From: an uncultured Chloroflexia bacterium
GTDB lineage: Bacteria; Chloroflexota; Limnocylindria; Limnocylindrales; CSP1-4
Reading direction: 5' to 3'
NCBI GenBank assembly: GCA_963812745.1
Contig: CAWEWE010000002.1
Coordinates: 180,178-244,177 of the forward strand
DNA: 64,000 bases
In this document: positions 43,616 to 47,131 of the stretch, one piece after another
Layout: each line of letters begins with the position of its first letter
Position numbering within the stretch: position 1 is the stretch's first letter
The notes under the pieces: model-generated
Seen by the model: the letters and a program-made list of their open reading frames with translations, nothing else
The model's database searches: none
Told to the model about the DNA's origin: nothing
Made by a program: the position numbers and the translations under genes

Positions 43616-44242
43616 ATGTCCCAGCACCTGCACCGGATCGCACGGGCGATCGCCATCGGGTCGATCGCGTTGCTCGCGCTGACGACGAGCGTCACCGCCG
43701 GGGAGCCGGTGGACCCCGCCACGCTCAACCCGGCGCCGCCGGCGGCGTTCAACTCGACGTGCGAGCGACTGGGCGACCAGATCCGATGCGATCTCGCGTT
43801 CTCGGATCCGCCGTTCTTCGACGAGCCGAGTGGGATCATCTGCGACGGGGTCGAGCTGCTCGTCTCGCAGACCCGCATCGTCGTCGGGAAGCGCTTCTAC
43901 GACGCCGCCGGCGACCTGCTGCGGCGCCACTTCCGCGAGCGGTTCACCGGGGAGATCAGCAACCCCATCACCGGTGTAACGGTCGACTGGGTCGCGCACA
44001 ACACGATCATCCACGACCTGGGGGTGCCGGGTGACGTCGCGTCGGGGACGACGCAGGTCACAGGGCAGCAGATCCGCATCTTCGCGGCGAACGGCGGGAG
44101 CGTCCTCATCGACGCGGGGCGGGTCCTGGTCGACGAGGCCTCTGGCGAGATCCTCAGCTCCTCTGGCCCGAAGCACTTCGACGACTACTTCGTGTTCGGT
44201 GATGAGCACGCGCTTGACGCGTTGTGTGCCTCCGTGAGCTGA
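43616..44242 (+). CDS. Secreted hypothetical protein with four Cys
   Basis: SD GGAGG, signal peptide, beta-rich mature part. Confidence 0.7.
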   Translation: MSQHLHRIARAIAIGSIALLALTTSVTAGEPVDPATLNPAPPAAFNSTCERLGDQIRCDLAFSDPPFFDEPSGIICDGVELLVSQTRIVVGKRFYDAAGDLLRRHFRERFTGEISNPITGVTVDWVAHNTIIHDLGVPGDVASGTTQVTGQQIRIFAANGGSVLIDAGRVLVDEASGEILSSSGPKHFDDYFVFGDEHALDALCASVS

Positions 44243-44340: not shown

Positions 44341-44823
44341 ATGGCCACCATCCCCGCCCCCGCTGCCGAGCTCATCGAGCGGGCGCTCGTCGCGGAGCTC
44401 ACGGTCGTCGATGCTACCGGTCGCCCGGTCACGTATCCCCTGATCCCGCTGTGGGACGGCGAGCGCGTCTACATGACGTCGTCGACGTTGTTCAGCCGGA
44501 AGCTCGAGCACATCGGCGCGAACCCACGCGTGTCGGTCTCCGTGACCGACCCCGTGAGCGTGGGGGGCCGCGTCGATCGCGTGACGATCCAGGGCGACGC
44601 TCGGGTCATCGCCGACGACCCCCACGGGGGCTGGGAGCGGTTGCTCCCGATCTGGTCGGCGAAGGAGCCGGCCATCGTGGCCTTCCTCAAGTCCCGTGTG
44701 GCGTTGCCGCTGTTCTTCGAGCGAGCGCTGATCGAGATCACGCCACGCCGCGTGCTCTACTGGCCGACCGGTGACGCGTCGGTCCCGCCGGTCGTCACGG
44801 TCGTAGAGCGGGAGGCGGCGTGA
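44341..44823 (+). CDS. Pyridoxamine 5'-phosphate oxidase-like split-barrel protein (FMN/F420/heme-binding family)
   Basis: ELTVVDATGRP..P, SRKLEHI..NPRVSV, V.IQG.A, R..IEITP; SD AGGAG. Confidence 0.82.
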   Translation: MATIPAPAAELIERALVAELTVVDATGRPVTYPLIPLWDGERVYMTSSTLFSRKLEHIGANPRVSVSVTDPVSVGGRVDRVTIQGDARVIADDPHGGWERLLPIWSAKEPAIVAFLKSRVALPLFFERALIEITPRRVLYWPTGDASVPPVVTVVEREAA

Positions 44824-46226
44824 TGCGTGCGACCCCGGAGATCGACGCCCGGCAGGGCCTCGAGAAGCTCGCCACCTATCCGTACCAGATCGCGTCGTGG
44901 GTCGATGACGCCGGCTATCCGCTGTCGGTCGCGGTCAGCGCCTCGGTCGATCCGCGCAGCCAGGTCGCGACGTTCACCGCGCCGGCCGGTCTGTCAGTGC
45001 CTACCAACCGGGCGGTGTCGTTGACCGGCTCGCACATCCGGCCCCAGCCGGGGTACGGCTACGACGAGCGCCGCCATGTCACGGTCTGGGGCCGTGTCGC
45101 GCCGGGTATCCGACCCGACACGATGACGCGGGTGTTGACGCTCACCGGGCGATCGGCATGGGGCTGGGACGAGTCGGAAGTCCCGTTCTTCGAGTACTCG
45201 GAGCGATCCGTGCCACGGTCGCGGCGCTATTTCGACGCCCTGTCGGCCGAGCGCGGCACGCCCGTCAAGCCGCGGCTGTCGTTCGGGTCGTTGGTGCTGC
45301 GGACGACGCGCCTGCCGTTCCTCACCGCGACGATCGTGCCGGTGCTGCTCGGCATCCTGATCGCTGCGAGCCACGGGGCGTTCGACCTGGTTTCGGCGGC
45401 GCTCACCGTGATCGGCGCCTCGTTCGTCCAGCTCGGACTGAACGTCGCGAACGACGTGTTCGATACAGTGCAGGGCGCTGACGACGCCAACGTGACGCCG
45501 ACGAAGTTCAGCGGCGGGTCGCGCGTGATCCAGTACGGGCTCGTGACGCTGCGCCAGATGGCGACGCTCGCGACGGCGTGCTACGTGTCCGCCGGCGCGA
45601 TCGGTCTGGTGCTGCTGGCGACGCGCGGTTCCACGGCGCTGCTGGTGATCGGCGTGGTCGGCTTCATCGTGTCGCTCGGCTATACGGCGCCGCCGTTGAA
45701 GTTCGTCTACCGCGGGCTCGGCGAAGTCGCCGTTGCGGTGGGCTTCGGACCGCTCATGCTCCTTGGGGCGTATGTCGTGCAGACACGCGGCGCCCTGGCC
45801 TGGGAGCCGTTCGTCGCGTCGATCCCGATCGCGCTGCTCGTGGCGCTGATCCTGTACGTCAACGAGATCCCCGACCGCCGCGGCGACGCGCATGCCGGCA
45901 AGCGGACGCTCCCGGTGCGGTTCTCGCGGTCGGCCGTCATCGGCGGGTACAACGTCGCGGTCGTCGCGGCGTATGTGGCGGTGGTGGCGGGTGTCGTGCT
46001 CGGGCTGCTGCCGATCCCGGCGCTGCTGATGCTGCTGACCATCCCGCTGGCACGCCGGGTCTCGTCCGGGCTGGCGCCGAACTACGACAACCCGTACGGC
46101 CTGATGGCCTTCATGGGCGTGAACGTGCAGCTGCATCTGCTGGCCGGCGTGCTGCTGCTGGCGGCGTACGCGATCGTGATCGCCACGATGGCGGTCGCAC
46201 CGGGCGTGGATCTCTTCCTGCGGTGA
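44823..46226 (+). CDS. Fusion of an N-terminal split-barrel-like domain and a MenA-type UbiA prenyltransferase
   Basis: About 160 aa N-domain (SWVDDAGYP) followed by RLPFLTAT..NVANDVFD..GAD..GGSRVI..YTAPP.K..YRGLGE..NEIPD...D..GKRTLPVR. Confidence 0.82.
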   Translation: MRATPEIDARQGLEKLATYPYQIASWVDDAGYPLSVAVSASVDPRSQVATFTAPAGLSVPTNRAVSLTGSHIRPQPGYGYDERRHVTVWGRVAPGIRPDTMTRVLTLTGRSAWGWDESEVPFFEYSERSVPRSRRYFDALSAERGTPVKPRLSFGSLVLRTTRLPFLTATIVPVLLGILIAASHGAFDLVSAALTVIGASFVQLGLNVANDVFDTVQGADDANVTPTKFSGGSRVIQYGLVTLRQMATLATACYVSAGAIGLVLLATRGSTALLVIGVVGFIVSLGYTAPPLKFVYRGLGEVAVAVGFGPLMLLGAYVVQTRGALAWEPFVASIPIALLVALILYVNEIPDRRGDAHAGKRTLPVRFSRSAVIGGYNVAVVAAYVAVVAGVVLGLLPIPALLMLLTIPLARRVSSGLAPNYDNPYGLMAFMGVNVQLHLLAGVLLLAAYAIVIATMAVAPGVDLFLR

Positions 46227-46273: not shown

Positions 46274-46777
46274 TCATCGGTTCAGAGACCACTCGCTGCT
46301 CGCCAAGGTATCGATGCGGTCCTGGCATGAATTGGCGATGGCCTCGAACGCGAGTGAGGTGCCCTCCACGCTCCAGTGATATCGGCCACTGGTCGGCGTA
46401 CCTTCCTGCACGGGACATCCCGGATCTGGCGCGAAGACGACCTCGGTCGCGGAGACGTCCTCGACCGATCCGGGGCTGAAGCTGTGTCCATCCGGATGGG
46501 TGAACATCATCCCCGTGGCGGTGACCGAGAGCTTCCACTCCCCGGGCGCTGCGTTCAGCCCCGACGGGATCGTCGCCGTGTAGGTACCGAACGGAAACAC
46601 CCCCGAATCGATCCCTGACGGGGCCGACGCGGTCGACGCGGTCGACGCCGACGCTTCAGGAACCGACGGCACGACACCGGCTGTCGGCCGGGCGCTCGAC
46701 GGCGCCGAACTCGAACAGGCAGCGGCGACGACGATGACGGATGCCAAGACCGCACGGGTAAGGACTCGTCCAGACAC
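46274..46777 (-). CDS. Lipoprotein of unknown function
   Basis: SD GGAGG, GTG start, AAAC lipobox, Ser/Ala linker, Cys pair. Confidence 0.7.
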   Translation of the reverse strand: MSGRVLTRAVLASVIVVAAACSSSAPSSARPTAGVVPSVPEASASTASTASAPSGIDSGVFPFGTYTATIPSGLNAAPGEWKLSVTATGMMFTHPDGHSFSPGSVEDVSATEVVFAPDPGCPVQEGTPTSGRYHWSVEGTSLAFEAIANSCQDRIDTLASSEWSLNR

Positions 46778-46873: not shown

Positions 46874-47131
46874 CTAATCAGGGATGCAGGCCTCGATGCC
46901 GCCGTTGTGCGCTTGGGCGTTGGCCCTCGTCACGCCACCGACGGTCGTGCCGAGGTCATCGGCGGTGGGCATCACGATGTTGTGGATGATGAACGCGTTA
47001 TTCGGGTTCGCGTAGGAAGCGAGGTAGCCGGCGCAGCTCGCAGGCTCGGTGATCGGCTGGGCCGCCGCAGCGCCGGCGATCACAAGGGTTGCCACCGCGG
47101 CAAAGGCCATGGCGGTGATGGATCGACGCAT
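46874..47131 (-). CDS. Small secreted protein with two Cys
   Basis: SD AAGGAGG, signal peptide ending AAAA/Q, ASC..C near the ends of the mature part. Confidence 0.7.
   Translation of the reverse strand: MRRSITAMAFAAVATLVIAGAAAAQPITEPASCAGYLASYANPNNAFIIHNIVMPTADDLGTTVGGVTRANAQAHNGGIEACIPD

Follow-up and report, generated by a model that had tools for sequence, protein, structure and literature searches.

Two overlapping genes in the DNA of an uncultured soil Chloroflexia bacterium (class Limnocylindria) raise the question of why a membrane prenyltransferase should carry a barrel-shaped soluble domain at its N-terminus and be encoded directly behind a second barrel protein. The genes, here called A and B, lie in a 64,000-nucleotide stretch of contig CAWEWE010000002.1 (the window, in whose coordinates the features of this stretch are given). 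Gene A (44341..44823, + strand) initiates with the ATG at 44341, terminates with the TGA at 44821-44823 and encodes a PNPOx/FDOR-B-like split-barrel protein of 160 amino acids (aa). Gene B (44820..46226, + strand) initiates with the GTG at 44820, or alternatively with the ATG at 44823, terminates at 46224-46226 and encodes a 468-aa protein in which a divergent split barrel precedes a UbiA-family prenyltransferase. The answer that we favour, at slightly less than even odds (roughly 0.45), is that A and B would constitute a single membrane enzyme, whose heterodimeric flavin/deazaflavin head would prepare a quinone for prenylation by reducing its head group.

The transferase and the two barrels

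Residues 172-413 of B match the UbiA family (PF01040) with 98.9 bits, against a cut-off of 34.2. The membrane domain occupies positions 45312..46223 (+ strand), its first hydrophobic segment starting at about residue 165 of the hydropathy profile. Enzymes of the UbiA family have Asp-rich motifs of the types N-D-x-x-D and D-x-x-x-D. In B, the first of these, NVANDVFDTVQGAD (45441..45482, + strand; residues 208-221), comes after the second hydrophobic segment; the second, NEIPDRRGDAHAGKRTL, lies at 45861..45911 (+ strand; residues 348-364). Both motifs are preserved in 21 of 21 barrel-fusion orthologs aligned, all of which also keep the core N-E-[IV]-P-D-R-x-x-D of the second motif, with differences in the G-K-R-T-L tail confined to a few rows.

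The preliminary description of this locus had called the domain a full MenA-type transferase with both Asp-rich motifs. The motifs and the family assignment stood; the label MenA has to be qualified. B scores under the cut-offs of all ten NCBIfam MenA models against which it was compared, including NF004751 (142.6 vs 264) and TIGR00751 (78.6 vs 102.15), whereas the MenA of a genome of the same genus (G261), taken as a control, exceeds both (318.4 and 237.9, respectively). The UbiA domain of B is 32-38% identical to classical MenAs, and the closest solved sequence is that of UBIAD1 (chain 8djk, E 2e-10). Heme O synthase models are absent from the NCBIfam matches of the transferase. A tree of 34 UbiA domains separated four clades (barrel-fused, luciferase-fused, operon MenA and a third paralog), each with support values of 100 and at least 99, the order among the four being left unresolved by long branches. 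Computation thus shows B to be a UbiA-family aromatic prenyltransferase, predicted to be catalytically intact, that resembles MenA and UBIAD1 yet belongs to a separate clade. The scores under the MenA cut-offs, together with the limited identity and the separate clade, therefore suggest a MenA-like mechanism rather than a MenA equivalog. Public annotation names the homologues of B either MenA or "prenyltransferase"; taken at face value, the automatic MenA label would attribute menaquinone synthesis to these genomes in error.

Gene A matches PF01243 (PNPOx_N) with 41.9 bits, above the gathering score of 28.1, in agreement with the initial description of a PPOX-like gene overlapping the next one, here by four bases. 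A profile search against the Protein Data Bank (PDB) returned 3f7e (1.4e-6), the best solved relative by sequence, and 1rfe. The AlphaFold2 model of A (predicted local distance difference test, pLDDT, 88.7) is a split barrel, for which Foldseek gave 175 matches at E<=1e-3. Its structural neighbours include 2i02, 2fhq, the F420 reductase MSMEG_3380 (3f7e), Rv2991 and several heme-binding barrels. The protein retains an S-x-K...N-P-x-V stretch, TSSTLFSRKLEHIGANPRVSVSV, at residues 46-68, which we take to be where proteins of this fold usually bind the cofactor phosphate.

The nature of the N-terminal portion of B is less apparent from its sequence. Residues 1-160 have no match in Pfam or NCBIfam, and a profile of the domain run against PDB sequences gave as its best match the PNPOx-like protein 2i02, with an E-value of 0.075. 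When profiles built from 35 N-domain sequences (alignment A1) and from 25 gene-A sequences (alignment A2) were compared with hhalign, the resulting probability was 1.2%, which is not significant, despite the fact that the program paired the same stretches that had originally been compared by eye. Sequence homology between the two barrels was rejected as usable evidence on this ground. A search of the Atlas with the N-domain yielded best scores of 0.86, under the usable level. The fold, on the other hand, was recovered by structure prediction. The AlphaFold2 model obtained from alignment A1 (pLDDT 91.3; predicted template modelling score 0.79) places a barrel at residues 23-117 and two helices after it. 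Foldseek matched it to 78 PDB chains at E<=1e-3, and each of the 30 entries listed is a split barrel or PNPOx-like. Among the matches listed are NimA, Rv2074 with F420, MSMEG_6526 with F420, Rv1155 and 2i02, as well as the heme-binding proteins PaiB, NohD and Anf3; several carry F420, flavin mononucleotide (FMN) or flavin adenine dinucleotide (FAD), or heme. VIA-align gave Z scores of up to 11.3 (6eci, root-mean-square deviation 2.9, 105 residues aligned), with 136 chains at a Z of at least 8. As judged from these models, the N-terminal ~150 residues of B (44820..45269, + strand), which belong to no Pfam family, are a divergent split barrel. Hence, of the earlier suggestion that the first ~160 residues are a degenerate second barrel, the part concerning the fold is sustained and the part concerning sequence resemblance to A is not. 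Alignments of both families further show that the N-domain is devoid of the S-x-K...N-P-x-V stretch kept in A. It has conserved motifs of its own, SHIRP-x-PG-x-GYDERR (residues 70-86) and WGWDE (residues 114-118), within which S71-H72-I73 is nearly invariant.

Split barrels are normally homodimers. The preliminary description had proposed that A and the barrel domain of B form a heterodimer instead, and prediction of the complex pointed in the same direction. The interface score (ipSAE) had a median of 0.82 in three runs (0.85, 0.82 and 0.81), compared to 0.12 for the best of three controls. For calibration, the ipSAE mark applied is attained by 116 of 157 solved complexes and by 2 of 215 mismatched pairs. 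Contact agreement among runs was at least 73% and the pLDDT of the partners at least 80. The predicted interface takes in the conserved N-domain residues 32, 34, 71, 73, 80 and 84. These predictions support the notion that A binds the N-domain of B.

Conservation of the fusion and of the pairing

The fusion of barrel and transferase is not an indel artefact. All 120 homologues of B listed (80-94% identity) are of fused length, 434-480 aa. A phmmer search with the N-domain over 1.84 billion representative sequences found just 173 matches at E<=1e-3. Twenty long matches (419-611 aa) were scanned for the transferase: UbiA was detected at E<=0.01 in 16 and over the cut-off in 13, and three of the four sequences lacking it are visibly frame-shifted translations. 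Among 401 sampled Chloroflexota genomes, 28 contain the N-domain, 25 of them at E<=5.4e-21 and three only at about 7e-4. N-domain and UbiA domain lie in a single frame at 24 of the 25 loci; the continuity of the barrel with the MenA-like domain, as read originally from this one sequence, recurs there. The remaining locus (L034; G040:C1:616894-620334) has barrel and UbiA domain in different frames, owing either to a broken gene or to an assembly indel.

Gene A is as constant as the fusion. An ortholog (54-81% identity) is found directly upstream of the N-domain, in another frame, at 25 of 25 loci. The start codon of B overlaps the stop codon of A at 24 of these loci; L034, the exception, was not evaluated in this respect. 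At the locus under study, the shared bases are GTGA (44820..44823, + strand), contained in the junction GGAGGCGGCGTGATG, which reads GTGATG across the overlap and has a GGAGG a few bases 5', consistent with translational coupling. Coupling of A to B and the overlapping stop and start hold across families, down to an N-domain identity of 35%. Within the class, 20 of 61 sampled genomes contain the N-domain. Orthologs of A (E<=6.1e-53) occur in 19 of these 20 and in none of the other 41; in the twentieth, the N-domain sits at the start of a contig and is truncated there. Computation thus shows A to be a canonical PNPOx/FDOR-B-like split barrel, always beside B and translationally coupled to it. 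No conserved neighbour other than the pair was found across 13 loci of ~20 kb; matches to an ATP-binding cassette ATPase, which occur at varying distances, were dismissed. A search of 185,579 species genomes returned 445 loci encoding a relative. Among the best 80, 77 have Chloroflexota-type titles and the other three carry other labels, two of them being on contigs under 11 kb.

A triple fusion of A, N-domain and UbiA domain, suggested by stop-to-stop frames of 587-674 aa, was considered and rejected in light of the different frame of A at 25 of 25 loci. Three representative proteins in which A runs on into the N-domain (P0135, P0223 and P0271) contain visibly out-of-frame stretches; they were taken as assembly errors and excluded from the counts. 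In one distant genome (G129, contig C55; L054:9706-10771), a gene of PNPOx-like type (PF01243, 35.3 bits) precedes a short, free-standing open reading frame (ORF) that resembles the N-domain weakly (residues 17-72, 38% identity, E ~5e-6 in a small search), and no UbiA domain comes after the two. These genes are possibly the barrel pair in an unfused state. Other short stand-alone N-domain-like sequences are found among the representatives (P0230, P0248, P0249 and P0255). In one subclade of B, some 70-130 additional residues, rich in Ala and Pro, stand ahead of the barrel (L029-L031 in genomes G151, G205 and G169; P0151, P0166, P0174, P0188 and P0193). Within it, the Asp motifs are degenerate in the metagenome sequences P0166, P0174, P0188 and P0193 and intact in the three genome copies.

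In the window, the pair is flanked by small ORFs for predicted secreted or lipoprotein-like products, at 43616-44242 (+ strand) on one side and at 46274-46777 and 46874-47131 (both - strand) on the other. None has a homolog in the 13 related loci compared, including those of the two closest genomes.

Quinone supply, cofactor and the proposed mechanism

The preliminary description had noted that no other men genes lie nearby. This holds, and extends to the organism's own genome (91.9% complete), which has no MenB, MenD or MenG/UbiE over cut-off (best score for the latter, 55.1 vs 158.35) and no match to MqnA or MqnC at E<=0.001. Across the class sample, MenB is over cut-off in 10 of 61 genomes and not in the other 51, and MqnA in none of the 61. 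The MenB-bearing genomes have a classical operon, with the order menB-menA-menC in G261, the genome of the same genus that lacks the pair. The respiratory quinone of most genomes of the class, and its origin, are not explained by the Men or MqnA routes.

A second, independent fusion found in the class bears on the question of redox chemistry. A 687-aa protein (G178:C5:1019190-1021250; L056:301-2361; also L150-L155) combines a luciferase-like N-terminal part (PF00296, E 1.1e-39) with a MenA-like UbiA C-terminal part (PF01040, E 3.3e-29). The best NCBIfam matches of the luciferase-like part are F420 Mer and luciferase-like monooxygenase-class families, all under cut-off. Of the 61 class genomes, 26 have this fusion; it coexists with the barrel pair in only 2 of the 44 sampled genomes that carry either. 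Its UbiA domains form a clade of their own, apart from the barrel-fused one, and the possibility that the two are sister clades is not supported by the tree. That two unrelated redox folds, both with F420-using relatives, are mounted on two different MenA-like clades within one class speaks for a coupling of prenylation to redox chemistry, whichever cofactor is used.

The third UbiA paralog of the tree is present in the organism's own genome (L002; G000:C4:77645-81319) as ORFs 1270-2274 and 1509-2459, with a change of frame near the C-terminus. It is in a single frame in the relatives L044 and L046, so that the own copy represents a frameshift or pseudogene, or an assembly error. Its best NCBIfam match is PRK05951, "prenyltransferase" (123.8 vs 239). 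In two genomes of one family (f3), this paralog lies 2-8 kb from the barrel pair.

The mechanism that we favour would operate as follows. A and the N-domain of B would pair as a pseudo-symmetric heterodimer, taking the place of the usual homodimer. Such a head would have a single competent flavin/deazaflavin site, for F420 or FMN, because only A keeps the S-x-K...N-P-x-V stretch. Neither soluble part has a signal peptide, and in B the barrel comes ahead of the first membrane helix; the head is therefore expected on the cytoplasmic side of the membrane, close to the active site and next to its first Asp motif. There it would convert a (naphtho)quinone head group into its quinol, or maintain its reduced state, and the transferase would then prenylate the quinol, the form usable by a MenA/UBIAD1-type enzyme. 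The outcome would be a redox-coupled prenylation, probably of a salvaged head group or of one other than 1,4-dihydroxy-2-naphthoate (DHNA), in cells without a Men or futalosine pathway. Both halves of the scheme have precedents. A study of UBIAD1 reports no menaquinone-4 synthesis without dithiothreitol, from which its authors conclude that menadione needs reduction before prenylation (PMC4398444). In PMC8498797, split-barrel FDOR members are described as reducing diverse substrates, quinones including menaquinone among them, and MSMEG_3380 is listed as an FDOR-B1 F420H2 reductase with strong quinone activity in vitro. The elements of this scheme differ in likelihood: the tethered heterodimer is likelier when taken alone than the reading as a whole, and the specific substrate is less so. 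A generalization to most Limnocylindria, devoid of Men and futalosine pathways and of FO synthase, is one that we consider unlikely: by an undescribed route, these bacteria would make their membrane electron carrier with a flavin- or deazaflavin-dependent reductase head on a MenA-like transferase, an arrangement invented twice, once as a heterodimeric split barrel and once as a luciferase-like fusion. Prenylation would fall on an aromatic head group that is scavenged or unconventional or, in the boldest form of the idea, on the bound deazaflavin itself.

Several observations weigh against the proposed mechanism. The absence of significant profile similarity between the two barrels (see above) is one of them. 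The complex score of 0.82 may partly reflect the model's memory of split-barrel homodimers, given that the solved split barrels are homodimers, and the controls consisted of unrelated proteins only, as opposed to other barrels or the A-A and N-N combinations. As to the cofactor, A scores under all the curated models of the F420-dependent PPOX class, TIGR03618 (43.4 vs 79.05), TIGR03667 (37.4 vs 125.3) and TIGR03666 (25.3 vs 84.9), and the fold neighbours of the two barrels bind F420, FMN, FAD or heme, thus indicating no single cofactor. CofD is found in the own genome (294.3 against a cut-off of 257.45), but also in 257 of 401 sampled genomes (a tally that includes six genomes flagged as unpublished, G344, G227, G173, G145, G038 and G272, none of them pair-bearing) and in all checked genomes of pair-bearing families. 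F420 co-occurrence was consequently discarded as evidence: CofD accompanies every pair but also all relatives, and being general to these families it does not discriminate. A search for CofH, the FO synthase, gave nothing in the own genome and detected it in only 2 of the 61 genomes of the class. To have F420, the cell would therefore have to scavenge FO, which suggests that the class depends on this or on another source of deazaflavin. Finally, the pair is not a clear substitute for the Men pathway. MenB occurs in 2 of 20 pair-bearing (G169 and G229) and 8 of 41 pair-less class genomes, while 33 of 61 have neither, making complementarity weak across the class. Within one family (f1), the figures are suggestive, with MenB in 1 of 7 pair-bearing versus 7 of 11 pair-less genomes; no statistic is claimed because the genomes are related.

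The likeliest of the alternatives, though we judge it unlikely, is that B is simply the organism's DHNA polyprenyltransferase, acting on DHNA obtained from neighbours, and that the barrel pair serves as a regulator, chaperone or stabiliser without a redox role. The MenA models are indeed the best NCBIfam matches of B, its Asp motifs are intact, and cross-feeding is conceivable since the genome does not encode DHNA synthesis. Yet B remains far under the MenA cut-offs that a true MenA from the same genus passes, and its transferase domain falls in a separate clade. Furthermore, MenB persists beside the pair in G169 and G229, the former having a menB-adjacent classical MenA as well, and the own genome has no MenG over cut-off to complete menaquinone. 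The retention of the S-x-K...N-P-x-V stretch in A also speaks against a purely auxiliary function.

Two further alternatives appear improbable, and about equally so. In the first, the barrel heterodimer would bind heme, perhaps through His72 of the N-domain, and act as a heme-dependent enzyme, sensor or carrier. The near invariance of the tripeptide around this residue speaks for such a role, as do heme-binding structural neighbours (PaiB, NohD, Anf3, MSMEG_4975, HugZ, HutZ, HupZ and At3g03890). A MenA-like transferase without a match to heme O synthase models is not what this scenario leads one to expect; moreover, the nearest sequence relatives of A are F420/FMN proteins, and the parallel luciferase-like fusion points toward flavin/deazaflavin chemistry. 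In the second, there would be no physical complex: A would be an independent soluble enzyme sharing the operon, and the N-domain of B would homodimerise, as split barrels commonly do, the complex score being a product of family memory. Strict co-occurrence and overlapping stop and start codons across families as far apart as 35% N-domain identity argue against such independence. The loss from the N-domain of the stretch that A keeps, and the possible unfused barrel pair in G129, argue in the same sense.

Less probable than either is a role of the head after, rather than before, the transfer step, namely saturation of one of the isoprene units that the product carries, or reduction of the product quinone. 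The variety of substrates reduced by FDOR split barrels, as described in PMC8498797, and the predicted tethering of the head beside the transferase would accommodate this role; nothing points to it specifically, and it leaves unexplained the bias of the module to genomes without head-group synthesis. Least probable of all is that the prenyl group goes onto a ligand in the grip of the barrels, for example FO, which is a phenolic deazaflavin, or some other aromatic, so that this ligand becomes a redox carrier anchored in the membrane, an idea for which one may invoke the binding of flavins and deazaflavins at the dimer interface of such barrels, the FO uptake implied by a class with CofD and almost no FO synthase, and the fusion of two F420-type folds to MenA-like transferases, but which is purely speculative, has no known precedent, and sits poorly with a transferase nearest to naphthoquinone enzymes.

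Comparison with known systems

Literature searches, whose coverage did not extend to subscription journals, found no paper on a fusion of UbiA with a split barrel or a luciferase-like domain, or on menaquinone or quinone biosynthesis in Limnocylindria. Should the reductase-head mechanism be correct, then B would be, as far as these searches show, the first known aromatic prenyltransferase with a built-in reductase head, and the head the first known split-barrel heterodimer with one subunit turned into a tethered pseudo-subunit. It also becomes testable which quinone this abundant, uncultured class of soil and freshwater Chloroflexota uses, and how it is synthesized.

Known systems resemble the pair in part. 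MenA (NF004751, TIGR00751) shares with B the UbiA fold and both Asp-rich motifs and provides its best family matches. B differs in its N-terminal barrel and obligate partner gene, in its sub-cut-off scores and in a genetic background without DHNA synthesis, as against the menB-menA-menC operon in which the high-scoring MenA of the same genus resides. The known FDOR members are soluble or membrane-associated homodimers, and none is known to be a heterodimer tethered to a transferase. The F420H2-dependent split-barrel reductases (Ddn in FDOR-A; MSMEG_3380/3f7e, Rv2991/1rfe and Rv1155 in FDOR-B) are nonetheless the nearest relatives of A in both sequence and structure, from which A departs by scoring under all the curated F420-PPOX cut-offs. 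UBIAD1, the menadione prenyltransferase of animals (8djk), parallels the proposal in acting on a salvaged naphthoquinone that needs prior reduction (PMC4398444); it has no built-in reductase domain and is only distantly similar to B. A further analogy is with the luciferase-like-UbiA fusion described above, where an F420-associated redox fold likewise stands N-terminal to a MenA-like transferase. There, the redox fold is a TIM barrel, the whole is a single polypeptide, and the transferase is from another UbiA clade. Set against these systems, the folds and the chemistry of the pair are known ones, their arrangement is undescribed, and the substrate logic is likely to be new.

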